Shown here: positions 4,001-31,803 of the stretch, in pieces | How positions within the stretch are numbered: the stretch's first letter is position 1 | How the letters are laid out: the number at the start of each line of letters is the position of its first letter | Source: Labilithrix sp. | GTDB taxonomy: Bacteria > Myxococcota_A > Polyangia > Polyangiales > Polyangiaceae | Assembly (NCBI GenBank): GCA_019637155.1 | Contig: JAHBWE010000017.1 | Coordinates: forward strand, 147,627 to 211,626 | DNA length: 64,000 nucleotides | Reading direction: 5' to 3' | Notes under the pieces: model-generated | Database searches by the model: none | Told to the model about the DNA's origin: nothing | What the model saw: only the letters and a program-made list of their open reading frames with translations | Made by a program: the position numbers and the translations under genes

Positions 4001-5857
4001 CACGGCAAGCTCGGCGGCGCGCACGCGACGAAGGCGCCGGCCATTCGGCAGGGTCAGATGACGATGAAGGGCAGCCTCCCCGCCGAGGTGATCCAGCGCA
4101 TCGTGCGCCAGAACTTCGGACGCTTCCGCCTCTGCTACGAGGCCGGCCTCCAGAAGAACCCGAACCTCTCCGGCACCGTCACGACGAAGTTCACGATCGA
4201 TCGCTCCGGCGCGGTGTCGAACACGGCCGACGCCGGCTCGGACATGCCGGACAAGACCGTGGTCCAGTGCGTCGTGAAGTCGTTCTCGACGCTCTCCTTC
4301 CCCCAGCCCGACGACGGCACCGTCATCGTCTCGTACCCGCTCCAGATGACGGCCGGCGACGACGCCGCGCCGAAGCCGCAGGCCGCGAACACGACGACGA
4401 CCGTGACCGTCACCACCACCACCGGTCCGATCGGCGTCATCGGTCACACCGCGCGCCCGTGCGGCCCCGGCGCGGAGCTGCCGCTCTCGGAGCGCCGCGT
4501 CCTCTGGGGCGAGCGCCTCGCGAACGCGAGCACGTCGGCGGAGGCCGCGCTCGCGGTCTACAAGAAGGCGCTCGACGACTGCGAGGCGCCGACGTGGCGC
4601 GAGCGCACGACGCTGCTCCTCCAGATGGTGGAGCAGCTCAAGACCGTGACCGCGCGCGTCGCGCTCTGGAAGTCGCTCGTCCTCACGCCCGCGGCCGACG
4701 TGGTGTACCGCGCGATCGTCGTGCGCGTGCAGTCCGTCGCCGAGCTCCACGAGCTCCACACCGCGCTCGGCCTCGCGACGGTGGACCCCGACATGCTGAA
4801 CGGCATGCTCGCGAAGGTGAAGACGCCGGCGGAGAAGGTCGGCGTCCTCCGCGCCGCGGCGCAGAAGTGGCCCGACGATCTCGAGCTCGGGCTCCGCGTG
4901 CTCGACGCCTACGAAGACGCGGGCGACGACGCCGGATCGCGCGCCTGGGCGCGCCGCCTCCGCCGCCGCGCCGACGCGACCGCGCACGTGTGGACCAGCG
5001 TCGGCGAGCACTACCTGCGCCTCGCCGCGCGCGAGCAGGGCGCCGACGCCGAGCGCGATCGGATCGAGGGCCGCCGCACGTTCGGCGAGATCGTCGAGTT
5101 CGCGCCCGAGGACCCGGCCGCGCGGCGCCGCCTCGGCGATCTCCTCCGCGCGCACGGCTGGTACGACGAGGCGCTCCGCCAGTACATGACGCTGCAGACG
5201 CTCACGCCGGACGATCCCGCGGTGCCGCTCCTCATCGCCTCGGCGGCGCAAGGCCTCGGCCGCGTCGAGGAGGCCGTCGGCTGGGCGGAGAAGGCCGCCC
5301 AGACCGGCTCGCCCGACGGCACGAGCCCGCTCTCCCGCGCCGCGCGCGCGACCGCGCTCGCGTTCATCGCTTGGGCGCGCGAGGACGCGCTGAAGAACGG
5401 GAAGAAGGAGGACGCGGAGAAGCTCCTCGCGCGCGGCAAGCGCCTCCTCGCCGCCGGCGGCAAGGCCGGCAACGACGGCGACACCGTGCGCGTCCTCGTC
5501 TCGTGGTCGCACCCCGAGCTGCACCCGACGTTGTGGACGAACGCGCTCGGCGCGCCGATGCCCTCGCCCGACAACTTCCTGCCGTTCGGGATCTCGGAGG
5601 CGAAGCTCTCCGGCTCGCCGGCGAAGGTCGAGGTGCGGCTCGAGCCCGAAGACGCGGCCCGCGCGGCGCGCCTCGGCGCGAAGGCGATCGTCACCGTCAT
5701 CAAGGGCGCCGGCACGCCGGGCGAGACGATCGTGAAGCAGGAGCTCTCGTTCGGCACCGTCGCCGCGCCGTCGACGACGCTCGCGCTCAGCTACGACGGA
5801 TCGCTCACCGTCACGGCGCAGGTCGCGAAGCCCGAGAAGCCGGAGGCGAAGAAGTGA
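1067..5857 (+). CDS. Giant multidomain lipoprotein: FecR-like, VIT, vWA, AgmX/PglI C-terminal (TonB-C-like) domain, then TPR repeats
   Basis: The 1596-aa ORF has high GC3 and an RBS (GGAGAA) 8 nt upstream. The signal peptide carries a lipobox (FAPAC). VIT-like block: RFSLVIERLDVRVTVDHDFATTEVDQTFVNP. vWA: VDLAIVVDTSAATE...LYIGDG. TonB-C-like/AgmX-PglI motif: LPAEVIQRIVRQNFGRFRLCYEAGL...VVQCVVKSF. A TPR-like helical tail follows. Confidence 0.85.
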   Translation: MRLHSACVVAALVLFSVFAPACKRGPAPSLVAKGDTFAEMRAVKGEISVTPPGESKRAPYPRERLADGAELSLASGALAWIRRDAGSVWLVAGPAQLTLKEDVFKMTSGRAFIDGEDAPPVRIDSPRGMVELENARASFEVLPDGSEDVYVLRGAARAKNTERGSAGERLTLKADGSITRSPAVAWDDWTGGLATADPAAQPAPFGLGTVGARPPGDKGKPRFSLVIERLDVRVTVDHDFATTEVDQTFVNPSSDTVEGIFSFRTPPGAVLSKFGVDRDGDVVWGKVKESAAAQQQYESNVYQGSTEDPALLAWSGPGTYNARLYPIQPGAKRRVVTRYAEWLSRQGPKSDRRLYVYPMAAEGARGSLPRIEELRVTFDLAKSGASRVKAGMNGRTEGKSVVIQAFDFVPRADLAVELFDGGESDPVAYRAPHTLTAEDIPMNADSKFAAKVSSEEPDYLLVPLRSSAADAVGPSAKGVDLAIVVDTSAATEPGALAIARSLTSALLAHLGPDDRAALWAGDATLRPIGEGSGELAAVDANKRRDWLAGLAGVERGGATDIGALLTEAAGKLDTKRRGAVLYIGDGLPSVGEVTPKAIKDRLVRLPPTTRIFAAGIGTRANVALLDSIARGAPVETVGDAYAAARSALRLLEAAQRGGWVGATVDLGPGIERVLPRELPPVAADESVLVVGRIAGRVPDKVTLKSGDESASKSLSVVTIEDTGDLRRRWGQGRMQELLGEGAGRAQLVDIGRRFGLVSPYTSLYVPTKREVERGDSAEREHVAQSRAEAIERRRFWRPWSRSWRYDEAPEAVAASAADNKEGGTGTRAKGEEGSMGNPQKSRYASATQPAEDMAPAASAAAPAGMIGLLNAGAGGDPNQAPAAPPPVATAAPATVDRDERARPAAPKAARAPAGAGDPLGARGNQWADQIGDSFGAGGLGLSGSGEGGAGRGEGIGLGNIGTIGHGAGTGTGQGFGAGHGKLGGAHATKAPAIRQGQMTMKGSLPAEVIQRIVRQNFGRFRLCYEAGLQKNPNLSGTVTTKFTIDRSGAVSNTADAGSDMPDKTVVQCVVKSFSTLSFPQPDDGTVIVSYPLQMTAGDDAAPKPQAANTTTTVTVTTTTGPIGVIGHTARPCGPGAELPLSERRVLWGERLANASTSAEAALAVYKKALDDCEAPTWRERTTLLLQMVEQLKTVTARVALWKSLVLTPAADVVYRAIVVRVQSVAELHELHTALGLATVDPDMLNGMLAKVKTPAEKVGVLRAAAQKWPDDLELGLRVLDAYEDAGDDAGSRAWARRLRRRADATAHVWTSVGEHYLRLAAREQGADAERDRIEGRRTFGEIVEFAPEDPAARRRLGDLLRAHGWYDEALRQYMTLQTLTPDDPAVPLLIASAAQGLGRVEEAVGWAEKAAQTGSPDGTSPLSRAARATALAFIAWAREDALKNGKKEDAEKLLARGKRLLAAGGKAGNDGDTVRVLVSWSHPELHPTLWTNALGAPMPSPDNFLPFGISEAKLSGSPAKVEVRLEPEDAARAARLGAKAIVTVIKGAGTPGETIVKQELSFGTVAAPSTTLALSYDGSLTVTAQVAKPEKPEAKK

Positions 5858-8800
5858 AGCTCCGCGACCTGAAAGCAAAGCTCCGCGCGCTCCCGCAGAC
5901 GCTGCGGAGCATGACGCGCGAAGACCTGAAGCGGCACGCGCTCTCCCTCGTCCGCCCCCGCACCGCGGTCCTGCTCCTCGCGCTCCTCGCGATCACCGCC
6001 GGCGCGATCGGGCTCCGCTCGCGCGGCGGCGCCACCGCCACGATCGGCGGGCTCGAGACCACGGTCGGCGATCTCCGCTCGCTCCACGCCGACGTGAGCG
6101 TGCAAGGCAAGGCCGCCCTCGGCGACACGCGCCTCCGCGACGGCGACGACGTGAAGACCGGACCCGAGGGCCGCGCGCGGATGCGGCTCGACGACGGCAC
6201 CGTCGTCATCGTCGCGGGCGACACCGAGCTCACGCTGAAGGGCCAGAAGCTCCTCCTCGCGAAGGGTCGCCTCTTCGTCCAGGCCGGCACCTCCTCGCGG
6301 ACCGAGGTCGCGATCAAGGACGCGAGCGCGACCGTGGTGTCGAGCGCGGCGGCGTTCGACGCCGGCGACGGCAAGGGCAAGGCGAGCGTGTATTGTGCAC
6401 GTGGCGAGGTCATCGTCGCGACCGGCGGGAAGTCCACCCACGCCGCGAGCGGCGAGACCGCGACGATCGAAGGCGCGAACGTGAAGGTCGCGCCCGAGAC
6501 CGCGTTCGACGACTGGACGGGTGGGCTCGCGGTGCCGTGGTCGGGCGAGAAGGCGCCCGCGAGCGCGATCGCCGAGCTCTGGGCCGGGAGCGGCGAGACC
6601 GATCCGGGCGCGCCGCTCGTCGTGCGCTCGCAGAAGGTCAACGTCACGGTCGAGGGAGAGCTCGCGGTGACGCGGATGCGGACGAGCTACTTCAACGGCT
6701 CCGACCGCGAGCTCCGCGCCGACGTGCGGCTCGCGCTCCCCGAGGGCGCGGTCGTCTCCCGCGTCGCGCGCTGCGACGAAGGGCGCATCGAGTTCCTGGC
6801 GTCGATGGAGATCGCGAAGGACGCGGGCACGATCGCGAACGGCTCGAGCCGCCTCGAGTGGGCGGGCGGCGGCTGGCTCCGCGGCGCCCTCATGGGGATC
6901 GAGGCGGGGAAGTCCGTCGACCTCCTGATCGACTACGTCGAGTGGCTGCCGCAGAAGAACGGGCGCGCGACGTACCGCTTCCCGATGGCGAGCGAGATCG
7001 AGGCGCCGATGGTCGGCGGGCTCGAGGTCAAGGTGTCGTCGCTCGCGCCCGCGAAGTGGCTCTCCGCGAGCACCGGCGCGGCGATCGTGAACGGCGCGAT
7101 CGAGCTCCGGCGCGCCGACATCCGTCCCACCGGCGACCTCGTCGTCGAGCTCTTGCCCGCCGTCGTGAAGGCGGACGCCGCGCGCGCGTACGTCGAGCGT
7201 CCGAACGACGGCAAGGAAGACCCGTACGTCGTCGTCCGCACCGAGGTGCCCGACGTCGGCGAGAGCGGCGTCGCGCTCGCGCTCGTGGTCGACACGTCGA
7301 GCAGCGTCGGCCCCGCCCTCCTCGAGACGGAGCGCGCCGCGGTCGACGCGATCCTCGAGTCGATGGGGCCGAAGGACTCCGTCGTCGTCGTCGCGGCCGA
7401 TCAGAACGCGGTCATGGTCGGGCCCGACAAGCTCTCGCCGGTGACGACCGAGCTCCGCGCGCAGATCCGCAAGGACATGACGCAGCTCCGCTCCGGCGGC
7501 GCGTCGAACCTCGGCGTCGCGCTCGAGCGCGCGGCCGATCTCCTCGACGCCGCGGACGCGAAGACTGCGCCAGCGTCCCCTGGGAAGAACCCGGGCATGG
7601 TCGTGTACCTCGGCGACGGCCGGCCGACCGTCGGCGAGAGCACGGGGCGCGACCTCCGCCGCCGCCTCGGCCTCCGCGCGAACGGCGCGCCGCGGCTCGG
7701 CGCGCTCGCGATCGGTCAGGGCGCCGATCGCTGGTTGCTCGCGGAGCTCGTGTCGGGCGCGGGCCCCGTCTTCGACGTGCTCGATCGCCCCGACGCCGCG
7801 CGCGCGGCCTCGGCCCTCGTCGCGGAGGCGCTCGCGCCGACGATCCGCGACGTGTCGCTCGTGCTCGGCGCTACGATCGATCGCGTGTACCCGCGCGACG
7901 CGCGCGCGGTGCCGGCCGGCACCACCCTCACCGTCGCCGGCCGCCTCCGCGGCGCGCTCCCCGACAAGATCTCGATCCGCTACCGCCAGGGCACCGAGGT
8001 CGTCGAGAAGATCATCCCGCTCGAGGAGGTGAAGCTCCCGCAGGACGCGGACGTCGCGAAGCGATGGACCGCGCTCCGGATCGAGGAGACGATCTCGCGC
8101 GACGACGGCATCGAGCCCGCGATCGCGCTCGCGGCGAAGTCTCGGCTCCTCACGCCGTGGACGGTCTGGTCCTGGTACGGCGCGAGCGCGTCGACGCCGT
8201 TCGCCGACCGCATCCTCGGCCTCTCGCCGAGGACCGACGCGGCGTACGCCGGCCGCGTGCAGCCCGCGCCGCAGCCGCCGTCGCTGCTCCTCGAGCCTCC
8301 GGCGGTGTTCGACGGCGAGGCGACGATCGAGCAGGCGGCCGAGATCGCGGCGCGCCACAACCTCGAGAACAACATGTCGGCGATGGTCGCGTGCCGCGAC
8401 GCGCGCGCCTCGATCAAGCCGAGCGTGACCGGCGACCTCAAGATCGACGTGAGCGTGAACGCCGACGGCAAGGCGACGAAGGTGACGGTGACGTCGTCGC
8501 GTCCGGGCGAGGACGATCCGATCCTCGATCGCTGCATCAAGGTCGTCGTCGGCTCGATGCCGTTCTTCGACGCCGGCGTCGCGTTCAACTTCAGCCACGT
8601 CATCTCGCTCCCGCCCGCGCCGTCGTCGCGGCGCACCGAGTGCAGCGTCGCGTCGACGTTGCCGCTCGCCGTCCGCCGCGGCATCTGGCGCGCGCGCAAG
8701 GCGCGCGGACAGCTCGACTACGGCACCGCCGCGCACAGCTGCGAGCTCCCGACCTGGAGCGATCGCCGCACGCTGCTCGGGATCATGGCCCTTGGGATGA

Positions 8801-9924
8801 ACGCGCAGACGGGGACCGCGCTCGCGAAGAGCCTCTCGGCGCAGGGCGAGACCGACGCGGCCGCGTTCGTGAAGCAGGAGCTCCTCCTTCACACGTCGCT
8901 CACCGCGCTCGGCTACGAGGAGCTGCGCCGCCTCCTCATCGACGACGAGCCGAAGGTCGATCGCGCGCTCGACAAGGCGTTCCGCGCGGCGAAGAACGAC
9001 GAGGCGCGCGAGAAGGTGCTGCGCCGCTTCCTCCGCCTCGCGCCGCACTCGCCGCTCGGCCGCCGCCTCCTCCTCGGGATGCTCGAGAACAAGAACGATC
9101 GCGGCGGCCTCCTCGACGCGATCGAGCAGATCCGGAGCGACGTCTTCGCCGACGCCGGCCTCCTCGCCGAGTGCGCGTCCGCGCTCCGCCGCATCGGCGA
9201 GGACGCCGAGGGCCGCCGCGCGTTCGGCGACCTCATCGAGCGCGCGCCGCGCGATCCCTGGACGCTGGGCTACGTCGGCGATCGCCTCCGCGCGGAGGGC
9301 CTCTACGAAGACGCGGCCCTCGCGTACCTCCGCCTCGACGCGGCGATGCCGGACGATCCCGCGGTGACGCTGCGCCTCGCGCTCGCGCACGCGGGCGCGG
9401 GCCGCCTCGACGTCGCGACGCGCCTCCTCGATCGCGTCGCGCAGACGGGCGGCCGCGGCGACGACGGGCGTCTCGGCGAGCTCGCCTCGGTCGTCGCGGC
9501 CTCGCTCCTCGCGAACGCGCGCGAGGACAAACCGTCGCCCGAGACCGACGCGCTCCTCGTGCGCCGCCTCGCGCAGACGCCGCTGCCCGACGTCGCGAGC
9601 ATCATCCTCGTGCGGACCCCGCTCACCGACGACAAGGTCGAGGTGTCGATCGCGCGCAACGTGAAGGACAAGGACGAGCTGCCGGCGGACCTCGACGCCT
9701 CGGCGATGGGGCTCTCCGCGCTCCGCATCGAGCGCGGCGGCGGCACCGCGCGCATCCGCATCAAGCGCACCGGCGCGGTGAGCGCGCGCACGACGAAGGG
9801 CCTCGTCACCGCGCTCGTGCTCGGGAGCGATCGCGCGAAGGCGAAGCTCGTGACACGCGAGGTCGACATCGGCGGGACCGACAAGGGGACGGAGCTCCGC
9901 TGGACCGGGGAGGCGTTCGAATGA
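5854..9924 (+). CDS. Paralogous giant membrane-anchored protein: TM anchor, FecR-like, VIT, vWA (MIDAS DTSSS), TonB-C-like domain, then TPR
   Basis: The in-frame GTG at 5854 overlaps the upstream TGA (GTGA), with GGAGG 7 nt upstream. N-terminal TM helix: AVLLLALLAITAGAIGL. vWA: LALVVDTSSSVGP...VVYLGDGRPTVGE. TonB-C-like: GDLKIDVSVNADGKATKVTVTS...LDRCIKVVVGSMPF. TPR-like C-terminus. The domain order matches gene 1067..5857. The track ORF 3460..9924 is an upstream read-through of the same frame. Confidence 0.8.
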   Translation: MKLRDLKAKLRALPQTLRSMTREDLKRHALSLVRPRTAVLLLALLAITAGAIGLRSRGGATATIGGLETTVGDLRSLHADVSVQGKAALGDTRLRDGDDVKTGPEGRARMRLDDGTVVIVAGDTELTLKGQKLLLAKGRLFVQAGTSSRTEVAIKDASATVVSSAAAFDAGDGKGKASVYCARGEVIVATGGKSTHAASGETATIEGANVKVAPETAFDDWTGGLAVPWSGEKAPASAIAELWAGSGETDPGAPLVVRSQKVNVTVEGELAVTRMRTSYFNGSDRELRADVRLALPEGAVVSRVARCDEGRIEFLASMEIAKDAGTIANGSSRLEWAGGGWLRGALMGIEAGKSVDLLIDYVEWLPQKNGRATYRFPMASEIEAPMVGGLEVKVSSLAPAKWLSASTGAAIVNGAIELRRADIRPTGDLVVELLPAVVKADAARAYVERPNDGKEDPYVVVRTEVPDVGESGVALALVVDTSSSVGPALLETERAAVDAILESMGPKDSVVVVAADQNAVMVGPDKLSPVTTELRAQIRKDMTQLRSGGASNLGVALERAADLLDAADAKTAPASPGKNPGMVVYLGDGRPTVGESTGRDLRRRLGLRANGAPRLGALAIGQGADRWLLAELVSGAGPVFDVLDRPDAARAASALVAEALAPTIRDVSLVLGATIDRVYPRDARAVPAGTTLTVAGRLRGALPDKISIRYRQGTEVVEKIIPLEEVKLPQDADVAKRWTALRIEETISRDDGIEPAIALAAKSRLLTPWTVWSWYGASASTPFADRILGLSPRTDAAYAGRVQPAPQPPSLLLEPPAVFDGEATIEQAAEIAARHNLENNMSAMVACRDARASIKPSVTGDLKIDVSVNADGKATKVTVTSSRPGEDDPILDRCIKVVVGSMPFFDAGVAFNFSHVISLPPAPSSRRTECSVASTLPLAVRRGIWRARKARGQLDYGTAAHSCELPTWSDRRTLLGIMALGMNAQTGTALAKSLSAQGETDAAAFVKQELLLHTSLTALGYEELRRLLIDDEPKVDRALDKAFRAAKNDEAREKVLRRFLRLAPHSPLGRRLLLGMLENKNDRGGLLDAIEQIRSDVFADAGLLAECASALRRIGEDAEGRRAFGDLIERAPRDPWTLGYVGDRLRAEGLYEDAALAYLRLDAAMPDDPAVTLRLALAHAGAGRLDVATRLLDRVAQTGGRGDDGRLGELASVVAASLLANAREDKPSPETDALLVRRLAQTPLPDVASIILVRTPLTDDKVEVSIARNVKDKDELPADLDASAMGLSALRIERGGGTARIRIKRTGAVSARTTKGLVTALVLGSDRAKAKLVTREVDIGGTDKGTELRWTGEAFE

Positions 9925-10916
9925 GGAAGTCGAGGAGGCCTGGGCGCATGTCACATACGCCGGCGCCGCCGGACGTGGCCTCGGAGCCGGTGGTGGCGCC
10001 GGAGCCGGAGCCGCAGCCGCCGCCGGATTACGAAGCCGCCGCGCCGCCGCCCGAGGAGCCCGAGGCGCCGCCGCCGGAGGAGCCGGAGCCGCAGCCGTCG
10101 TACGAAGAGGAGTACGAGCAGCAGGAGCCGCCGTACGAAGGCGAGGCGTACGCCGAGGATCAGGCGCCGTACGAGGAGCCGCCGCCGGAGTACGAGACGG
10201 CGCCGATGGCGGGCCCGCCCGACGTGCTCCCGCCGCATCCGTACGATGTCGGCCCCATGACCGGACCTCCGCACCTGCTCGAGCAGATGTACGCGACGGG
10301 CCCGATGGGGGGACCGCCGCATGCGCCGATGCAGGCGCCGCCGCCGATGCAGCCGGACGGCGGGCCGTACCGCGTACCGCCGTACGATCCGACGTTCCTG
10401 CCGGCGCGCGGCGTCCCGATCCCGCGGCCGATCCTCGGCTCGGCGATCGCGGTCTACGGCGTGCTCCTCTGGTCGTTCGTTCTCGCGGGGCAGTTCGCGA
10501 CGTCGTGGTTCGGCGCGGCGCCGATGGACGAGGGGCTCGCGGTGTTCATCGTCTTCGCGTCGACGCTCATCGCGTGGGTCGTCGCGGTGCGGAGGAGCAA
10601 GAGCGCGCTGCCGCCGCCGACGCGCGCGAAGCTCGTCGGCCGCTCGCTCGGCATCGTCGCCCTCGCCTTCACGGCCTTCTTCGTCACGCTCATCGGCGCC
10701 ACGATCGCGGGCCAGATCGGCGCCCGCGATCACGACTTCGTCATCGCCTTCGGCCTCGTCACGATCGCGGTGACGGCGTCCGCGCTCGGCCCCCGCCTCG
10801 CGCACCCGCTCCGCCCCGCCCTCTCCCACGGCGCCCGCTTCGGCGTCGTCGTGATGTGGCTCGTCGGCGCCATCGCGACCTTCGTAGCGGGCGCGCAGCT
10901 CGCGACGAACGGGTAG
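9921..10916 (+). CDS. Pro/Glu/Tyr-rich membrane protein (acidic low-complexity N-terminus plus four TM helices)
   Basis: The ATG at 9921 overlaps the upstream stop (ATGA), with GGGGAGG upstream. The N-terminal ~150 aa are PEPEPQPPPDYEAAAPPPEEPE...PPYEGEAYAEDQAPYEEPPPEYE, rich in PPxY/PY motifs. The C-terminal half has four hydrophobic helices. It is co-directional and coupled with the two giant genes. Confidence 0.65.
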   Translation: MRKSRRPGRMSHTPAPPDVASEPVVAPEPEPQPPPDYEAAAPPPEEPEAPPPEEPEPQPSYEEEYEQQEPPYEGEAYAEDQAPYEEPPPEYETAPMAGPPDVLPPHPYDVGPMTGPPHLLEQMYATGPMGGPPHAPMQAPPPMQPDGGPYRVPPYDPTFLPARGVPIPRPILGSAIAVYGVLLWSFVLAGQFATSWFGAAPMDEGLAVFIVFASTLIAWVVAVRRSKSALPPPTRAKLVGRSLGIVALAFTAFFVTLIGATIAGQIGARDHDFVIAFGLVTIAVTASALGPRLAHPLRPALSHGARFGVVVMWLVGAIATFVAGAQLATNG

Positions 10917-11171
10917 AGGCCCGGTCGCGAGTAAGAGGTGCCCATGGGTGGAGACGCGGTGATCGGCCTCGCGGAGCCGGGCGGAGGATGGCGAGGGGTG
11001 TACGTTCGGTCCCCGTACGAGCCCGATGGGCTCGGGAGGAGACTGCTCGATCTGGTCGCCGAGGTGGGCGGGGAGTCGAGCGCCGCGTGGGAGAGGATCG
11101 CGAGCGCGCCGGACGGCTGGCGTGATGCGTTTCGCGATGCGTACGAGGCTGGCCGCGCGTCCGCGGGCGCA

Positions 11172-11762
11172 TCAGGTGAGGCGCATGACGCCGTCTACAT
11201 GGGTCATCCCCTCGTAGATCGAGTCGACCTCCAGTCGAGCGTCGACCGAACGCAACACCAAGGTCTCGCCGCGGGCGGCGTAGGTGGTCGTCCACGTCCC
11301 ATCGGGATTGCGGACATGACTCTCGATGAGGGGGTCCTGGTGCGAGACGAGGACGTACTCCTTGAGGCTCGTCAGCGACCGATAGTGATCGAACTTCTTC
11401 CCACGATCGTAAGCCTCCGTGCTCTCCGACAAGACCTCGACGAGGAGGATCGGGTTGGTGACCGACTCGGGGTCTTCGGCGTCGGTCTCGAGCTTGCCGC
11501 ACACCACGAACCCGTCCGGATAGGTTCCTTTCCCCGACGGGGTGCGCACGCGGATGTCTGGCCCCTCGACCACGCAGTCGCGTCCACTGGAGAGAGAACC
11601 CTTGATGGCGTCGCGAACGCGGGTGCCGAGCCTTCCATGCGCGATCGACCCACCCGACATGGCGAAGATCTCGCCGTCGAAGAACTCGTGCTTCGTCTCG
11701 CTCGTCCCTTCGCGCCTCGCGTACTCGGCGTAACTCAACTCGAGTTTCGGAGCCGACTGCAT
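11172..11762 (-). CDS. Uma2 family endonuclease (DUF820)
   Basis: MQSAPKLELSYAEYARREGTSETKHEFFDGEIFAMSGGSIAHGRLG...NPILLVEVLSESTEAYDRGKKFDHYRSLTSLKEYVLV is a characteristic Uma2 signature. I trimmed the start to the ATG at 11762. Confidence 0.85.
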   Translation of the reverse strand: MQSAPKLELSYAEYARREGTSETKHEFFDGEIFAMSGGSIAHGRLGTRVRDAIKGSLSSGRDCVVEGPDIRVRTPSGKGTYPDGFVVCGKLETDAEDPESVTNPILLVEVLSESTEAYDRGKKFDHYRSLTSLKEYVLVSHQDPLIESHVRNPDGTWTTTYAARGETLVLRSVDARLEVDSIYEGMTHVDGVMRLT

Positions 11763-11866
11763 GGCGGGGAGCCTAGCACATGGCCCTGGTGCGGAAGCTC
11801 CCTGCCGCCGTCGCAGCGCGCGCGTACGCGAAGCTCCAGCACCCTCGCGGCGCCCTCTTCGCCGCA

Positions 11867-12745
11867 TCAGCCTCGGACGTTGACCTCGGCCTGGGTCGTC
11901 CAGGCGTTCGCGCCGTCGAGCCGCGCGTCGAGCGCGCGGACGTCGACGCCGTTCTTCGGATCGCGCGCGAACACGTACGCGTCGAACCCCTCACGGAAGG
12001 CGGCGTCGTCCGCGTAGGACGCGCGGATCTTGGGGTGCGCGGCGAGGAAGGCCTCCTTCGAGACACCCGCGTCGGCGAAGTCACGTCCGGCGATCATCCC
12101 GATGTCGGCGCGGTGCTGGAGCGCCGCGAGCCCCTTCGGATCGCTCATCAGCCGCTCGGTCATGCGAAACGCCTCGGTGTTCGGTCCGCGCGAGACGCCG
12201 GGGAGCTCCTTGAACCGCGCGTCCTTGAACCCGGGCGGCAGGTTCAGCGCGCCGAGGAGACCGACGTGGACGTTCTCCCGCGTCACGGCCTCCGCCTGCT
12301 CGGCCCCCTGCGCGTGCGCGGCGTGGAGCTCGTAGAAGCCGAGCCCGAGGGCCACGAAGGGCGACGCCACGTCGAGCGCGAGCGGGAGGTGAGCCCCCGC
12401 GATCCCGGCGCCGTCCGCGACGACCTCCACCAGGCCGCCGAAGCCGTCCACCCCGACGTGCGCGTGGTGCTCCGCGGAGAGCTCGCGCTGCGTCTTGTCG
12501 CGTCCGTGCACGTCGACGCGGACGCCGAGGTCGCGGCGAAGCACCTGGTTCGTCCCCTCGGTACGATCGAGGTCGGCCGCCTCCGCGTCGGTGAAGTGCC
12601 TTGGTCCGAGCGTCTCCTCGCTGCGGATCGTCGTCTTCTTGTCGATGCCTCGAGGGGCGGGCTTGTGGAGCTCGCCGGGCGGGAGCGTCTCTTCGCTGCT
12701 GATCTCGAGGTACTTGCGGCCACGAACCTGGGTGACGTCGGACAT
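11867..12745 (-). CDS. Hypothetical protein
   Basis: 292-aa ORF with high GC3 and non-repetitive composition (contains EHHAHVGVDGFGG). I recognise no confident family. Confidence 0.5.
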   Translation of the reverse strand: MSDVTQVRGRKYLEISSEETLPPGELHKPAPRGIDKKTTIRSEETLGPRHFTDAEAADLDRTEGTNQVLRRDLGVRVDVHGRDKTQRELSAEHHAHVGVDGFGGLVEVVADGAGIAGAHLPLALDVASPFVALGLGFYELHAAHAQGAEQAEAVTRENVHVGLLGALNLPPGFKDARFKELPGVSRGPNTEAFRMTERLMSDPKGLAALQHRADIGMIAGRDFADAGVSKEAFLAAHPKIRASYADDAAFREGFDAYVFARDPKNGVDVRALDARLDGANAWTTQAEVNVRG

Positions 12746-20470: not shown

Positions 20471-20575
20471 GCCTCTCGTATGGGCAACGCCCGTGCCGTG
20501 CACGCTGGAGCGGTCCGCTCGAAGCGCGAGCGGCTTCGACGCTCGCGTCTGACAACGAATCCGTACACCGATCCG

Positions 20576-21943
20576 TCAGAGGCATTCGGGCTTCACGACC
20601 CGGATGCCGGTGGCGTCTTCGATGTAGGGCGGGTCGCAGCTTCGCTTCGCGGGCTTGAGCCGTGTCGCCGGAGCCCGCGCCGACGCCGGCGCCGGCGCCG
20701 ACGGAGCCGGCGCGGAGGACGACGCGCGCTCCGGGAGGGACACGGCCGGCGACGCCGCCGGCGCGACGGCGGCGACCGACGAGCTCGGCGCCGCGATCGG
20801 CGTCGAGCGCGGCATGAGTCGCGCACCGGCGACGGCGAGCCCGACGAGGAGCGCGACGACGACCGCGAGACGAAGAGGCCACTTCGCACGAGGAGGCGAC
20901 GCGACCGGGCTCGGCGCCGCGAGCTCGACCGGCGGGTCTCGAAGCGGCTTCGGCGTCTCGCGCGTCACCGCGGTCGCGGTCGCGGTCGCGAGGCGCTCGG
21001 CGCGCTCGGCGAGCTGACCCGCCGCGACCTCCTCGACCCACTCCGCGACCTCGCTCGCGAGCGCGACCGGCCCGTGCGTCTCCAGCGCGTTGGCCATCTC
21101 GCGCGCGGTCTGGAAACGTGCGGCCGGATCGCGCGCGAGGCCGCGCAGCACGAGCGCGTCGAGCCCTTCGTCGATCTCCGGAACGCGGCTGCGCGGCCCG
21201 AGGACGGGCGCCTCCAACACCTTCGCCATCATCGCGCCGCTGTTGCTCGCCGCGAAGAGACGCTCGCCCGTGAGGCACTCCCAGAGGACCACCGACGCCG
21301 CGTAGACGTCGGTCTGCGGCCCCACCTCCCCGTCGAGCAACTGCTCGGGCGCCATGTACGCGAGCTTTCCCTTGATCTGATCGCCGGTGGTGGCGTGGAG
21401 CCGGTTCGCCGCCTTCGCGATCCCGAAGTCGAGGATGCGGGCGAGGCCGTCGCTGCCGACGAGGATGTTCTGAGGCGAGACGTCCCGATGGACGATCTGG
21501 AGCGGAGCGCCGTCCTCGTTCGTCGCCGTGTGCGCGGCGTGAAGACCGTAGAGGACGTCGCTGGCGAGCCGGAGCGCGATCTTCGGCGGAACACGCGCCC
21601 CGCGCGGCAGGTACGTGCGCAAGAGGCTCGCGAGCGAAGCGCCGGCGACGTACTCCATGACGAGGAGCAGCTCGCCGTCCTCCGCGACCGCGTCGAGCGT
21701 CGCGATCACGTTCGGGTGATGGATCTGCGCGGCGAGCCGGGCCTCGTCGACGAACATCTCGACGAAGCTCGCCTCGCGCGAATACTGCGGATGAAGACGC
21801 TTGATCGCGACGACGCGCGCGAAACCGGCGTCGCCGACGATTCGCCCGAAGTGGACGGCGCCCATCCCGCCGGAGGCGAGCTCACCGAAGATCTCGTAGC
21901 GCCCGATGCGTCGCTCCGGCGCGCCCTGTCGTTGCGCGCGCAT
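20576..21943 (-). CDS. Serine/threonine protein kinase with C-terminal TM and extracytoplasmic tail
   Basis: Hanks motifs: GELASGGMGAVHFG, VAIK, HRDVSPQNILV, DFGIAK, APE. A TM helix (LAVVVALLVGLAVAG) follows. I trimmed the start to the ATG at 21943. Confidence 0.85.
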   Translation of the reverse strand: MRAQRQGAPERRIGRYEIFGELASGGMGAVHFGRIVGDAGFARVVAIKRLHPQYSREASFVEMFVDEARLAAQIHHPNVIATLDAVAEDGELLLVMEYVAGASLASLLRTYLPRGARVPPKIALRLASDVLYGLHAAHTATNEDGAPLQIVHRDVSPQNILVGSDGLARILDFGIAKAANRLHATTGDQIKGKLAYMAPEQLLDGEVGPQTDVYAASVVLWECLTGERLFAASNSGAMMAKVLEAPVLGPRSRVPEIDEGLDALVLRGLARDPAARFQTAREMANALETHGPVALASEVAEWVEEVAAGQLAERAERLATATATAVTRETPKPLRDPPVELAAPSPVASPPRAKWPLRLAVVVALLVGLAVAGARLMPRSTPIAAPSSSVAAVAPAASPAVSLPERASSSAPAPSAPAPASARAPATRLKPAKRSCDPPYIEDATGIRVVKPECL

Positions 21944-21972
21944 CGCGGCGGCGGGGGTTCGAATCAGCTCGC

Positions 21973-22794
21973 TCAAGGCAACCTCGCCTGGACGGCGAGG
22001 CCACCGGGCAGCGGCACGAGGACCGCTTGCGCGCGCGCGGCGGAGAAGGACGGCCAGAGGAAGGCGGCGAGTGCCATGGAGACGACGCCGGCGCCGGCGA
22101 GGACGCCGGACGTCCACCAGAGCGTCTTGATCGTCGTGACGTCCGAAGCGGCGCACGACGGCGCGCAGGTGTCGCGCAGGTCCGCGCGCTGCAGATGCCC
22201 CATCGTCGTGAGCACGCCCGCGGTCGCGAGGAGCCCGATCCCCGCCGCGCCGAGCGCGAGCGAAGGCGTCCGACTGGGCCGCTCCACCGGCGGCCGCGCC
22301 GGCGGCGGCGCGGGCAGATCGATCAACGCGGCGACGAGACGATCATGCTCCGCCGGCTTCAGCGTCAGCCGCACCTCCTCCGAGGTGGAGTCGCCTCGCT
22401 CGAAACGAAAGACGTGATCGCCCGGCTCGAGCGTCATCGCCTCGGCGGGGACGACCGCCGCGATCTTCGTTCCATCCATCACGACGCTCGCGTCGATGAC
22501 GGGACGACCTCGTCGATCGCGCAAGCTGAAACGCACCGTCGGCATGAGCGCGTCGATCTCGTGGAGCCAGGCCTTGCAGTCCTTCGTCAGCGCGGCCGGG
22601 CACGTCTCGAGACAGGTCTCGAGGTCGGCGCGCGCGGCGACGATGTCGCCGTCGCGCTTCGTCCGCTGCGCACCTTCATACGAGGCCTTGCATCGCGCCT
22701 TGTTGCTCTCCGCGCTCGCGATCCCGGAGAACGACGCGATCCCGGAGAACGAGACCAGGACGAGCAACGCCGTGCACGATCGGTTGCGGCTCAC
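21973..22794 (-). CDS. Secreted/membrane protein with PEGA-like domain
   Basis: The GTG start overlaps the TGA of the upstream sigma54 activator (GAGTGAGC). Signal peptide: CTALLVLVSFSGIASFSGIASA, containing an 18-bp tandem duplication. PEGA-like block: VVMDGTKIAAVVPAEAMTLEPGDHVFRFERGDSTSEEVRL. Two C-terminal TM helices. Confidence 0.55.
   Translation of the reverse strand: MSRNRSCTALLVLVSFSGIASFSGIASAESNKARCKASYEGAQRTKRDGDIVAARADLETCLETCPAALTKDCKAWLHEIDALMPTVRFSLRDRRGRPVIDASVVMDGTKIAAVVPAEAMTLEPGDHVFRFERGDSTSEEVRLTLKPAEHDRLVAALIDLPAPPPARPPVERPSRTPSLALGAAGIGLLATAGVLTTMGHLQRADLRDTCAPSCAASDVTTIKTLWWTSGVLAGAGVVSMALAAFLWPSFSAARAQAVLVPLPGGLAVQARLP
22718..22753. repeat. 18-bp tandem duplication (17/18 identical) inside the signal-peptide coding region
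   Basis: gcgatcccggagaacgac / gcgatcccggagaacgag, encoding SFSGIA-SFSGIA on the minus strand. Confidence 0.8.
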
Positions 22795-29217: not shown

Positions 29218-29928
29218 TCAGTCGAGCCCCTTCTTTCCGACCGACCAGTACGCCTTCGTCTTGCCCGCGCGGAGCGAGCCGCTCGCCTTCAAGCGCGCGC
29301 GGAGGAGCTGGATCGCCTGCGCCTTGCCCGTGAGCGCGAGCGACGCGCGCGTGTCCTTCGCGAGCTCCTCGGCGATGCGCGCCGCGACGTCGGGGAGGTG
29401 CGCGTCCGCCGCGCCGCGCGCGACGACGGTCGCGCCGCCGAGGCCGATCGCGTCGAGCGCGCTCTTCGCCGCCGCCTCGTCGTCGACCTCGAACACGCAC
29501 GTCGCGCGCCGCGCGTCGTGGAGCGCGCGGCCGGCCGCGAACGACGTCTCGTCACCGAAGAGGACGACCGGCTCGCTCAGCTCCGGGAAGCGGATCGAGC
29601 TCCGCGGCCCGAAGAAGCTCACTTCGTCGCCGGCGCGGAGCCCCGCCGCCCACGCCGCCCCCGGCGTCGTCGTCGAGTGGACGTAGAGGAGGAAGCTCGT
29701 CTCGCCGCGCTCCTTGTCCCAGCGGAGCGGGGTGTACGTGCGCATCCCGCGGCCCGGCAGGTACACCTGGACCTTGTCGCCCGGCGTCCACGCCACGCCG
29801 CGGAGCGCGTCGCCGGCGAGCTCGGCGATGCGCAGGCGCGGGCCCACGTCGCGCACGGACGCGACGCGGGCTTCGGTGAAGATGAAGCGGCCCACCACCG
29901 CCCCGAAGATCGACTTCGCGGATGCCAC
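29218..29928 (-). CDS. Siderophore-interacting protein (FAD-binding_9/SIP family)
   Basis: RIAELAG...WTPGDKVQVYLPGRGMRTYTPLRWD...FLLYVHSTTTPGAAWAAGLRAGDEVSFFGP. I chose the in-frame GTG at 29928, just after the stop of the Cys-rich ORF, as the start. Confidence 0.7.
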   Translation of the reverse strand: MASAKSIFGAVVGRFIFTEARVASVRDVGPRLRIAELAGDALRGVAWTPGDKVQVYLPGRGMRTYTPLRWDKERGETSFLLYVHSTTTPGAAWAAGLRAGDEVSFFGPRSSIRFPELSEPVVLFGDETSFAAGRALHDARRATCVFEVDDEAAAKSALDAIGLGGATVVARGAADAHLPDVAARIAEELAKDTRASLALTGKAQAIQLLRARLKASGSLRAGKTKAYWSVGKKGLD

Positions 29929-29948
29929 GAGGGCTTCGATGCCGGAGC

Positions 29949-30098
29949 TCAGCCCTCCGTCGCGCACCCACAATCCGCGCACGTGCACGGATCGCACTCG
30001 CAGGTCTCCCCGCAGCGGCACGCCTCGCCGCAGCCGCAGTCCGCCACGTCACAACAGCCCTTCTTCTCGTCCTGGTTCATCGCGTCTCTCTGGCTCAT
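29949..30098 (-). CDS. Metallothionein-like Cys-rich small protein (49 aa, 12 Cys)
   Basis: MSQRDAMNQDEKKGCCDVADCGCGEACRCGETCECDPCTCADCGCATEG. AAGGAG lies 10 nt upstream of the ATG at 30098. Local GC is lower than the surroundings. The gene sits between SanA and SIP on the same strand. Confidence 0.6.
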   Translation of the reverse strand: MSQRDAMNQDEKKGCCDVADCGCGEACRCGETCECDPCTCADCGCATEG

Positions 30099-30173
30099 CG
30101 AGCGCCAGCTCCTTCGAACCTGCAGACGCACGGACCGCAGCGCGATTACAGCGCGCGGTCGATTTCTTCCGGC

Positions 30174-30839
30174 TCAGCCCGCGGTGACGCGACCGTCCCC
30201 GCCGAGGTCGATCGGCGCGCCGCCGTGGCGCGGCACGCGGCGCCTCGTGACGTCGACGAACGCCTTCGTCCGCGAGACGACCTCACGCGCGTGGAGCCAC
30301 GCGATGCCGCGGTAGAGATGGCGATCGGAGGCCGCTCCTTCCGCCTCCATCCCGAGCGCGCGACTGCACCAGACCGCACGCGAGAGGTGGAACTGCTGCG
30401 TGACGACGATGAGCTTGCGCGCCCCGAACACGTGCTTCGCGCGCCAGACCGAGCTGTACGTGTCGAGGCCGGCGTGGTCCATGAAGATGTCGGCCGGCGG
30501 GACGCCCTTCGCCTCGAGGTAGCGCCGCATCGCGTTCGGCTCGTCGTACACCGCGGTCCGGTGATCGCCGCTGACCAGGATCTTCCGCACGCGACCCGCG
30601 CGATAGAGCGCGAGCGACTCGTCCAACCGATCGCGCAGCACGTCCGACGGTCTCCCGTCCCGCACCGCCGCGCCGAGCACGAGCGCGATCTCTACGTCAG
30701 GGGTTTCGCCCCAGACACGGCCCGCCCGCTTCTGGGGCCCCTCGGTCCTGCCGCCGGTGAGGACGATGAGGTTCGTGGCGAGGACGGCGGCCGCTACGAG
30801 GAGGATGGCGGTATAGAGACGGCGGGAGCGCACGACCAT
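30174..30839 (-). CDS. SanA/YdcF (DUF218) family protein
   Basis: N-terminal TM helix, then DVEIALVLGAAVRDGRPSDVLRDRLDESLALYRAGRVRKILVSGDHR, a typical DUF218 signature. Confidence 0.8.
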   Translation of the reverse strand: MVVRSRRLYTAILLVAAAVLATNLIVLTGGRTEGPQKRAGRVWGETPDVEIALVLGAAVRDGRPSDVLRDRLDESLALYRAGRVRKILVSGDHRTAVYDEPNAMRRYLEAKGVPPADIFMDHAGLDTYSSVWRAKHVFGARKLIVVTQQFHLSRAVWCSRALGMEAEGAASDRHLYRGIAWLHAREVVSRTKAFVDVTRRRVPRHGGAPIDLGGDGRVTAG

Positions 30840-30921
30840 AGTCTACGTCTACGACCGGCACGGCGGGGTGATTCCCGGCGAAGGACGCACACGGATTTCA
30901 CGAAATGATACATTCTCCAGA

Positions 30922-31803
30922 ATGAAGAGGCGCACGCGAGCGTCGGTCGTCTGCGAGGCGGAGGGGCACCTCCTCCTCGTGCGGCTCCGCGACCCGACCA
31001 CCGGCGTCGAGAGCTGGTTCCCGCCCGGCGGCGGCGTGGAGGAGGACGAGCGCCCGGCCGAGACCGCGCGCCGCGAGACGCTCGAGGAGACGGGCGTCGC
31101 GGTGCACGTGCAGTCGCACCTCGTGCTCGTCGATCGCTATCCGTTCCGCTGGGACGGCGTCGACTACGACTGCGTCACGCACTACTTCGCGGCCGAGCTC
31201 GAGGGCGCGTTCGATCCCGACCTCGCGCCGGTGAGGGACGCGCCGTATCACCGCGGCGCGAAGTGGCTCCCGAGCGCGGAGGGCCTCGCCGAGCTCGCGG
31301 TGAACCCGCGCATCGGCGCCGCGGTGAGCCGCGTCCTCGGCCGCGCGCGCCGCACGCGGTGGCGGGCGCAAGGCGCGCTCGAGGGCCCCGCGGGGATGCT
31401 CCTCACGCTCCACGATCACTTCCGCGTCGCGACCGAGCGCCTCCGCTTCATGTTCGAGCGCGAGCCCGACGTGCCGCTCGGCTGGGTCGGCCGCGCGTTC
31501 GCGCCGATCGCGGAGATGCTGCACCATCACCATCACGCGGAGGAGCAGATGCTCTTCCCCTTCGTCGAGCGCCGCACCGGGAGCGCGCCGGAGAAGCTCG
31601 TCCTCGATCACGGCGAGCTGACCGCCGCGATCGACGCGGTGAACGACGCGCTCCGCCCCGAGACCGCGCGCGAAGACGCCGCCGCCGCGCTCGCGCGCTT
31701 CGAGGACGTGCTCGTCGATCACCTCGATCGCGAGGAGGGCCTCGTCGTCCCGGTCCTGCTCGAGCTCGCGCCGGCGGAGGCGTGGGCGCTCATTCACGCG
31801 TAG
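30922..31803 (+). CDS. NUDIX hydrolase fused to a C-terminal hemerythrin-like HHE cation-binding domain
   Basis: Nudix box: GGGVEEDERPAETARRETLEETGV. C-terminal hemerythrin motifs: H..HF, EMLHHHHHAEEQMLFP, LDHGEL, HLDREE. A low-GC divergent promoter region lies upstream. I trimmed the start to the ATG at 30922. Confidence 0.8.
   Translation: MKRRTRASVVCEAEGHLLLVRLRDPTTGVESWFPPGGGVEEDERPAETARRETLEETGVAVHVQSHLVLVDRYPFRWDGVDYDCVTHYFAAELEGAFDPDLAPVRDAPYHRGAKWLPSAEGLAELAVNPRIGAAVSRVLGRARRTRWRAQGALEGPAGMLLTLHDHFRVATERLRFMFEREPDVPLGWVGRAFAPIAEMLHHHHHAEEQMLFPFVERRTGSAPEKLVLDHGELTAAIDAVNDALRPETAREDAAAALARFEDVLVDHLDREEGLVVPVLLELAPAEAWALIHA

Follow-up and report, generated by a model that had tools for sequence, protein, structure and literature searches.

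The 64,000-nucleotide stretch of Labilithrix sp. DNA analyzed here (contig JAHBWE010000017.1; hereafter the window) encodes, on its minus strand, a cysteine-rich open reading frame (ORF) of 49 codons located between a sanA-like gene and a gene for a siderophore-interacting-protein-like (SIP) reductase. A 225-bp insertion, placed precisely where the sanA-like gene ends and bracketed by an imperfect repeat of the sanA tail, contains the ORF. We tentatively read the ORF as a young, lineage-specific small gene, probably translated into a cytoplasmic peptide that would bind metal in a thiolate cluster and act like a metallothionein, and we give this reading slightly less than an even chance. No homologue of the product was detected. 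The segment and the signals within it are the following.

29949-30098, minus strand: cysteine-rich, metallothionein-like ORF, 49 codons plus TGA, defined by reading of the frame, G+C content at third codon positions (GC3), codon score, and NCBI protein records

30109-30114, minus strand: Shine-Dalgarno-like AAGGAG, exactly 10 nt ahead of the ATG

29949-30173, no strand assigned: apparently lineage-specific insertion of exactly 225 bp (75 codons) that includes the hairpin, the Shine-Dalgarno-like site, and the ORF, defined by alignments and present in none of the syntenic relatives

30172-30190, minus strand: direct-repeat copy 1, the true sanA 3′ end (..R-V-T-A-G-stop plus GC), from a repeat search

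29947-29965, minus strand: direct-repeat copy 2, the duplicated sanA tail read as the ORF C-terminus (G-C-A-T-E-G-stop), from a repeat search and alignment

30133-30160, minus strand: imperfect palindrome or hairpin GACCGCGCGC-TGTAAT-CGCGCTGCGGTC, 13 nt past the sanA stop and inside the insert

The ORF begins with an ATG at 30098 and ends with a TGA at 29951-29949. An initial annotation, made from the letters of the window alone, had described a metallothionein-like ORF of 49 aa and 24 % cysteine without giving its strand; the reading bears this out on the minus strand, and the translation, MSQRDAMNQDEKKGCCDVADCGCGEACRCGETCECDPCTCADCGCATEG, is exactly the peptide quoted there. The range then reported, 29949-30173, takes in both the ORF and the 75 nt between it and the sanA stop codon (30174-30176). 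Twelve of the 49 residues (24.5 %) are cysteines, at positions 15, 16, 21, 23, 27, 29, 33, 35, 38, 40, 43, and 45. They form the pattern CC-x4-CxC-x3-CxC-x3-CxC-x2-CxC-x2-CxC (one CC and five CxC, with CxxC between pairs), and exact translation also agrees with the earlier count of 12 cysteines in CC, CxC, and CxxC arrangements with zero aromatic residues. The product has a mass of 5.08 kDa and an isoelectric point of about 4.05, with 0 F, W, or Y, 0 His, and 11 acidic versus 4 basic residues. We read no signal peptide or hydrophobic stretch in it and therefore predict that it is cytoplasmic.

The cysteine density is far above chance. Cysteine makes up 0.8 % of the residues encoded by window genes, and the eight-cysteine CxC skeleton matches once in the window and not at all in 100 shuffles. 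Across all frames of the window and of 23 related loci, this is the only ORF with at least 12 cysteines in 35 aa. The AlphaFold single-sequence model of the product has zero secondary structure (predicted local distance difference test score of 60), which is consistent with a metal-dependent fold but does not discriminate. The ORF had been thought to be of a kind missed by annotation, but two separate NCBI records (MBX3232169.1 and MCW5813194.1) already include it under the name “hypothetical protein KIT84_19360 [Labilithrix sp.].” An assembly artefact is unlikely because the protein is identical in both. A longer, 60-aa version from the GTG at 30131 was ruled out; it would translate the Shine-Dalgarno site as codons, and the NCBI model is also 49 aa.

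The AAGGAG seen by the initial annotation 10 nt upstream of the start is present at 30114-30109. The chance that this hexamer falls in the 8-nt Shine-Dalgarno window of a given ATG is about 0.3 % (43 AAGGAG in 128 kb, both strands). The 43 occurrences in the whole window exceed the 14 ± 4 expected from shuffles, and therefore Shine-Dalgarno-like hexamers are not rare in this genome. Several of these sites are inside GC3-supported genes and may be AAG-GAG (Lys-Glu) codon pairs.

The window as a whole is 71.8 % GC. The GC content of the ORF is 0.64-0.68 versus 0.72-0.78 in its flanks, the dip that had been noted earlier. The GC3 in the ORF frame is still 0.88 (0.90-0.97 in neighboring genes), so the dip comes from amino acid composition (TGC, GAx, and AAG codons) and not from foreign bases. 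By a codon log-likelihood trained on 37 GC3-supported window genes, the ORF frame is the top of the six (+9.6 bits), its antisense mirror scores +3.0, and the remaining four score −27 to −63. The score of the ORF is lowered by its cysteine codons because cysteine is rare in window genes; its 37 non-cysteine codons have 0.68 bits per codon, compared with a mean of 0.58 in real genes. The whole-ORF score is exceeded by 6.5 % of wrong-frame windows. Codons that end in A or T (6 of 49) are no different in frequency from the 7.9 % of the genome. Based on the Shine-Dalgarno site, the ATG, and the coding statistics, the ORF is likely a translated gene.

Relatives of the locus were found via the SIP neighbor and include five sequenced syntenic loci (L012, L151, L152, L153, and L154) and one contig known by its gene table. 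L012 is the Labilithrix metagenome-assembled genome (MAG) STL-MYX21, with a SanA 76 % identical to that of the window; the L151 SanA is 78 % identical. In L152, the gene order is NUDIX, DUF218, SIP, GIY-YIG, PolB. An empty form of the site would have the sanA stop followed directly by GCTCCGGCATCGAAG. In the window, an imperfect direct repeat (19 nt, 79 % identity, spacing of 225) flanks the insert. Copy 2 (GGG TGC GCG ACG GAG GGC TGA) is identical at 18 of 21 positions to the sanA tail of L151 (GGG CGC GCG ACG GCC GGC TGA, G-R-A-T-A-G-stop). From this match, we conclude that the last six codons of the ORF, its stop, and the spacer ahead of SIP are the displaced sanA end. The last cysteine of the ORF (Cys45) corresponds to a CGC to TGC change in this duplicated tail. 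The remainder of the insert holds the hairpin, the Shine-Dalgarno site, and codons 1-43. Insertion in the lineage of the window is the parsimonious reading of these alignments because the ORF is absent from all sampled relatives. Loss of the ORF in several lineages through recombination between the repeats is less parsimonious.

The first two internal units of the ORF, TGCGGCTGCGGCGAGGCG and TGCCGCTGCGGGGAGACC (CGCGEA and CRCGET), are identical at 14 of 18 nt, and Tandem Repeats Finder (TRF) reports a degenerate hexamer array, CCGCAG/CTGCGG, at 30010-30044. This sequence pattern indicates that the ORF grew by internal duplication, as in metallothionein evolution. The source of the insert was searched for by blastn and tblastn of the window and all loci, plasmids, and viral contigs, and none was found. 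We also asked whether the final 225 nt of sanA had been copied in tandem and had then diverged to give the insert, and we rejected this. The two are not similar outside the terminal repeat; their global score falls inside the null range, and their identity in register (0.36) is due to the last 19-25 nt.

The relative closest to the window, L144, has a different rearrangement of the locus. There, SIP is on the opposite strand from sanA, with their stop codons overlapping in CTAG (L144 1960-1972). The breakpoint of this inversion coincides with the point of the 225-bp insertion in the window: both are at the sanA stop codon. This coincidence hints that the sanA stop is a recombination-prone or att-like site.

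The 75 nt upstream of the ORF had been predicted to contain a hairpin-capable palindrome centered on TGTAAT that could be a promoter overlaid by a metalloregulator site. Folding supports the hairpin, which has a single bulge in its 10-bp stem and a loop of 7 nt (free energy of −16.9 kcal/mol); folding at least this stable is seen in only 0.74 % of 28-nt windows. The surrounding 91-nt region folds no better than shuffles (z = −0.32). The regulatory part of the prediction is not supported. A consensus scan of the upstream region found no sigma-70-like promoter, TGTAAT has no usable −35 element, and no second copy of the palindrome occurs elsewhere in the window. The genes scanned by Pfam around the ORF (about 13 kb, 22.8-35.8 kb) include no metal-sensor gene within about 8 kb of it, and the nearest regulator gene, of the Rrf2 type, is 4.4 kb away. 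Thus, we did not find the adjacent sensor gene and operator-promoter of a metal-regulated operon of the smtA/smtB type. An RNA hairpin that closes or stabilizes the sanA message is at least as plausible as an operator because the hairpin starts 13 nt past the sanA stop. A scan of the upstream region for a terminator consensus also found none. One Rfam candidate, a tetrahydrofolate (THF) riboswitch at 29914-30003 on the minus strand, covers the 3′ half of the ORF and the SIP start; it scored 22.5 bits versus a gathering score of 36 (E = 0.038) and was judged a chance match in GC-rich sequence.

A metallothionein is defined operationally (Kägi/Binz) as a protein smaller than 10 kDa with about 15-35 % cysteine in CC, CxC, and CxxC motifs, few or no aromatic residues, and multi-metal thiolate clusters of characteristic spectroscopy. 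The ORF product agrees with this definition in mass, in cysteine content and motifs, and in aromatic residues. None of the described families recognized it. Zero Pfam families match at E ≤ 10, including PF02069 (Metallothio_Pro), PF00131, PF01439, PF02068, PF11403, and PF12749, and there are zero matches to NCBIfam models at E ≤ 1 and to PHROGs. Among PDB chains (phmmer, E ≤ 10), the sole match is wheat Ec-1 (2kak, E = 9.7), and the SmtA structure was not recovered. No relatives of the ORF were found in plasmids, viral contigs, or 35 related loci. A DNA pattern of the cysteine skeleton (TGY-N3-TGY...) run over metagenome contigs recovered no relative among the 120 loci listed, which are dominated by (TGC)n and (TG)n simple repeats, and the exact product has no match in the contig collection.

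We compared the cysteine register of the product with SmtA, MymT, human MT2A, Neurospora Cu-MT, Cup1, and Ec-1 (MT, metallothionein) against shuffled cores. In the best case, eight cysteines are in register with the MT2 beta-domain, which is equaled by 26 % of shuffled cores (P = 0.26). The P value is 0.056 for Neurospora and 0.95 for MymT (4 matches), and none of the six comparisons is significant. The product has no profile match to the BmtA/SmtA family and lacks the histidine ligands and aromatic residues of its Cys9His2-type, zinc-finger-like fold. It has no similarity to MymT and no Cys/His motif in common with it, and no profile or solved structure places it among the eukaryotic metallothioneins. 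The label “metallothionein-like” therefore holds for composition, alongside credible translation signals, but finds no described family behind it in Pfam, NCBIfam, PDB, or the cysteine register. The comparison with bacterial metallothionein families that the initial annotation had recommended, run by profile and protein searches, gave no family match. That annotation had also named a lack of conservation of the cysteine pattern in related genomes as grounds for refutation, and the relatives lack the gene altogether. This weakens the idea of a conserved functional metallothionein; it does not weaken the idea that the peptide would bind metals. Full-text searching of the literature brought up no article about a metallothionein native to a myxobacterium. 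On sequence grounds, we treat the ORF as a lineage-specific orphan that is metallothionein-like by composition only, unproven as a metallothionein and apparently not a member of a known family.

The tentative reading of a young gene for a metal-binding peptide can be stated in steps. A 225-bp segment would have entered the locus precisely where the sanA-like gene ends, duplicating about 19-23 nt of the sanA tail. The insert would bring the hairpin, the Shine-Dalgarno site, and the ATG, and the new frame would run into the duplicated tail, which supplies the last six codons (G-C-A-T-E-G) and the TGA. The ORF would then be part of a sanA-ORF-SIP transcription unit (same strand, gaps of 75 and 20 nt), with its stop in the position relative to SIP formerly held by the sanA stop. 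Translation from its own Shine-Dalgarno site may produce a cytoplasmic peptide that is disordered without metal. Following established metallothionein chemistry, the 12 cysteines would fold only around soft metal ions in a metal-thiolate cluster; characterized metallothionein domains suggest, by analogy, a rough load of about 4 Zn/Cd or 6-8 Cu(I). The peptide may buffer or sequester metal as metallothioneins do. Termination 20 nt ahead of the SIP start would keep the stop-to-start layout that relatives have with sanA.

A bolder version of this reading, which we consider distinctly unlikely, is a functional metal-binding peptide caught at birth. It would combine insertion at a recombination-prone gene end, duplication of the CxCGEx unit, capture of the sanA tail, stop, and coupling spacer, and conversion of an Arg codon to the final cysteine. 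The result would be a third independently evolved bacterial metallothionein type, unrelated to BmtA or MymT.

Several observations weigh against a metallothionein-like gene. A search of 5.8 billion protein clusters, an exhaustive phmmer search of 1.84 billion representatives, and a synthetic profile (140 variants with the 12 cysteines fixed and the other positions randomized) each recovered the ORF itself only; at these database sizes, relatives below about 50 % identity are undetectable with a 49-aa query. With self-hits only, there is therefore no evidence of purifying selection, and no homologue is available in another genome to define a conserved family. In the syntenic relatives, the distance from the sanA stop to the SIP start is 19-44 nt, with no Cys-rich ORF between, and L144 (SanA 87 %, SIP 72 % identical) is also without the ORF. 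The scanned neighbors of the ORF include no metal-sensor gene (ArsR/SmtB, MerR, CsoR, or Fur family) and no metal-resistance gene. Before it binds metal, the product carries a net charge of about −7, more acidic than is usual for metallothioneins, and the whole-ORF codon score is only at the 10th percentile of true-gene windows.

The same absence of relatives favors the main rival, a neutral proto-gene or insertion by-product, which we find somewhat unlikely. It proposes a recombination scar (illegitimate or site-specific) with a GC-rich, (CTGCGG)n-like repeat that happens to read Cys-Gly, transcribed and perhaps even translated but without a selected function. The ORF is a strict orphan found in no sampled relative, the degenerate array at 30010-30044 has the repeat unit CCGCAG/CTGCGG, and the stop and C-terminus are no more than duplicated sanA tail. 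The sanA stop as inversion breakpoint in L144 suggests a recombination-prone site at which such a scar could form. The GC3 of the antisense mirror frame is also high (0.875), so GC3 alone does not decide the strand. However, a correctly spaced AAGGAG-ATG has the chance of about 0.3 % given above, non-cysteine codon usage equals that of real genes in a frame that is the best of six, and the regular spacing of the 12 cysteines reaches well past the hexamer array. The CGC to TGC change in the duplicated tail supplies the final CxC. The repeat copies have diverged to 79 % with the ORF still open, which suggests an insertion of some age, although the two copies may have differed from the outset.

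The remaining alternatives involve the genes next to the ORF.

30174-30839, minus strand: DUF218/SanA-like gene (PF02698, 94 bits), the upstream neighbor, whose tail is duplicated by the insertion

29218-29928, minus strand: siderophore-interacting-protein-like FAD reductase (SIP), 236 aa with a GTG start (PF08021, FAD_binding_9, 45 bits), the downstream neighbor

29929-29948, minus strand: spacer GCTCCGGCATCGAAGCCCTC, 20 nt from the ORF stop to the SIP GTG, aligned with relatives

Pfam and NCBIfam scans agree with the first description of the ORF as placed between SanA-like and SIP genes. The SanA equivalog model gives the DUF218 gene 95 bits, under its 363-bit cut-off. The SIP product is identical to NCBI MBX3232168.1 (236 aa), and the gene is probably co-transcribed with the ORF, as judged from their arrangement. 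A SIP start at 30021 that would overlap the ORF, taken from a mechanical ORF list, was ruled out; the orthologues, that of L012 among them, and the NCBI model start at MASAK (GTG 29928). The homologous spacer of the relatives comes after the sanA stop and contains a conserved GGCATCGAAG. In the window and every syntenic relative, this motif is about 10 nt ahead of the SIP start (window 29929-29948; L012 3993-4012; L151 352-370; L152 2468-2500; L153 about 547-583), where it may serve SIP in translation initiation or regulation. L144 has a perfect 7-1-7 palindrome, TGAAAGT-G-ACTTTCA, at 1199-1213 in an AT-rich 115-nt region upstream of its SIP orthologue; no copy exists in the window (≤3 mismatches) or in any other locus. 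It resembles Fur-family (Zur-box-like) operators, which suggests that SIP in L144 may have its own metal-regulated promoter.

The scanned genes encode a sigma-54 activator, an MFS transporter, PolB, a PF06983 protein, SIP, DUF218, a NUDIX-hemerythrin protein, DUF1440, DUF1318, an epimerase, Rrf2, and a flavoprotein. The NUDIX hydrolase is fused to a hemerythrin HHE cation-binding domain (30868-31803, plus strand) and is divergent from sanA; the fusion also adjoins sanA in L012 and the P0006 contig and, in part, in L144. Elsewhere in the window, 5857-11867 and 20575-22791 have no ORF that passes the gene filter (GC3 >0.85, GC2 <0.62; GC2, the second-position equivalent). These stretches may be genes of atypical composition or non-coding DNA.

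The ORF might act in cis as an upstream ORF that delivers ribosomes to a weakly signaled SIP start by translational coupling, or whose 12 cysteine codons stall ribosomes so that SIP becomes sensitive to cysteine or Cys-tRNA. The polycysteine leader ORFs of mycobacteria are a precedent for a Cys-sensing leader. The ORF stop is 20 nt ahead of the SIP GTG, no strong Shine-Dalgarno site is visible in the sequence ahead of this start, and in relatives the same spacer comes between sanA and SIP; SIP thus seems in every case to begin shortly past an upstream stop codon. We nonetheless consider this role improbable. Known cysteine attenuators are much shorter, have consecutive cysteine codons, and control Cys/sulfur genes, whereas here 49 codons precede an FAD reductase across a 20-nt spacer that is too small for a terminator/antiterminator. 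Coupling in relatives occurs via sanA itself, and the insert is not needed for it.

Slightly less probable still is a partnership with SIP in which the peptide takes Fe(II) released from ferric siderophores or serves as a redox or Fe-S carrier. The ORF adjoins SIP and is probably co-transcribed with it, and SIP-family paralogues in other Labilithrix MAGs (GCA_019637195.1; L147 / L148 1781-3214) lie immediately downstream of the gene for a heme oxygenase (PF01126), which links the family to iron. The heme oxygenase neighborhood is an iron-acquisition context, unlike that of the window. The adjacency of sanA and SIP is older than the ORF, the SIPs of all relatives work without it, and no co-occurrence of ORF and SIP was found elsewhere. 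In established metallothionein chemistry, CxC-rich thiolate peptides favor Cu(I), Zn, and Cd over Fe. The earlier suggestion of metal buffering coupled to iron handling is not upheld, given that every syntenic relative has the ancestral sanA-SIP adjacency without the ORF, which is a later arrival. A ribosomally synthesized and post-translationally modified peptide (RiPP) or a bacteriocin-like, secreted Cys-rich peptide precursor with the leader MSQRDAMNQDEKKG is very improbable; the hydrophilic N-terminal 14 residues and the Cys-dense core after them, as read from sequence, would suit one, but the product has no signal peptide and no known family, and the 22.8-35.8 kb Pfam scan includes no radical-SAM, LanB/C/M, YcaO, peptidase-transporter, or similar gene for maturation or transport.

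If the peptide binds metals in vivo, metallothionein-like proteins would arise repeatedly and recently in bacteria. The origin of the gene would also be unusually legible, because the limits of the insertion are exact, the ORF has internal repeats, and its C-terminus and stop come from a neighbor; it would be a tidy case of a de novo or young gene. We find this legible origin at a rearrangement-prone gene end more interesting than the metallothionein idea. If the ORF is non-functional, it would be a caution that a GC-rich repeat in one frame can mimic a Cys-rich “metallothionein” in genomes of 70+ % GC and that composition alone is unfit for annotating metallothioneins. Its weight at present is modest, as a single-lineage feature of an uncultured organism; it is a clean candidate young gene in a family of one.

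Among bacterial metallothioneins, function has been studied only for the SmtA/BmtA family and MymT (PMC7387436). Like BmtA/SmtA proteins (PF02069; Synechococcus SmtA and the Pseudomonas PmtA/PflQ2 metallothionein), the ORF product is a small, cytoplasmic, Cys-rich peptide in the range of about 50-80 aa with expected Zn/Cd thiolate sequestration. However, SmtA-type proteins have 9 cysteines plus histidine ligands, aromatic residues, and a zinc-finger-like fold, whereas the ORF has 12 cysteines, no histidine, and no aromatic residues. The smtA gene is accompanied by a divergent gene for the SmtB repressor (PMC7387436), and the ORF has no sensor gene among the scanned neighbors. MymT of Mycobacterium tuberculosis, a Cu(I)-binding peptide of 53 aa involved in Cu detoxification (PMC7387436), is likewise very small, lineage-restricted, Cys-rich with CxC-type motifs, and easily overlooked in annotation. 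It differs in having histidine and hydrophobic residues and fewer cysteines, with no detectable similarity to the ORF.

The insertion resembles the att repeats or target-site duplications of integrative elements in that it is bracketed by an imperfect repeat of the last codons and stop of its target, which is left intact with a displaced copy on the far side. Unlike such elements, the insert is only 225 bp and has no integrase, transposase, or terminal inverted repeats, and its 19-23-nt repeat is longer than is typical for the target duplications of insertion sequences.

With the eukaryotic beta-domain type (vertebrate metallothioneins and Neurospora Cu-MT), the ORF product has in common CxC pairs 2-3 residues apart and the lack of aromatic residues and histidine. 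Seven to eight of its cysteines are in register with the human MT2 beta-domain (CxC-x3-CxC-x2-CxC-x2-C), which is not significant. The likeness is compositional, and the product is strongly acidic whereas vertebrate metallothioneins are Lys-rich. Recent transfer from a eukaryote is unlikely because the codon usage of the ORF is native to a 72 % GC genome. By this analogy, beta-domain-type chemistry is what the product would most plausibly copy.

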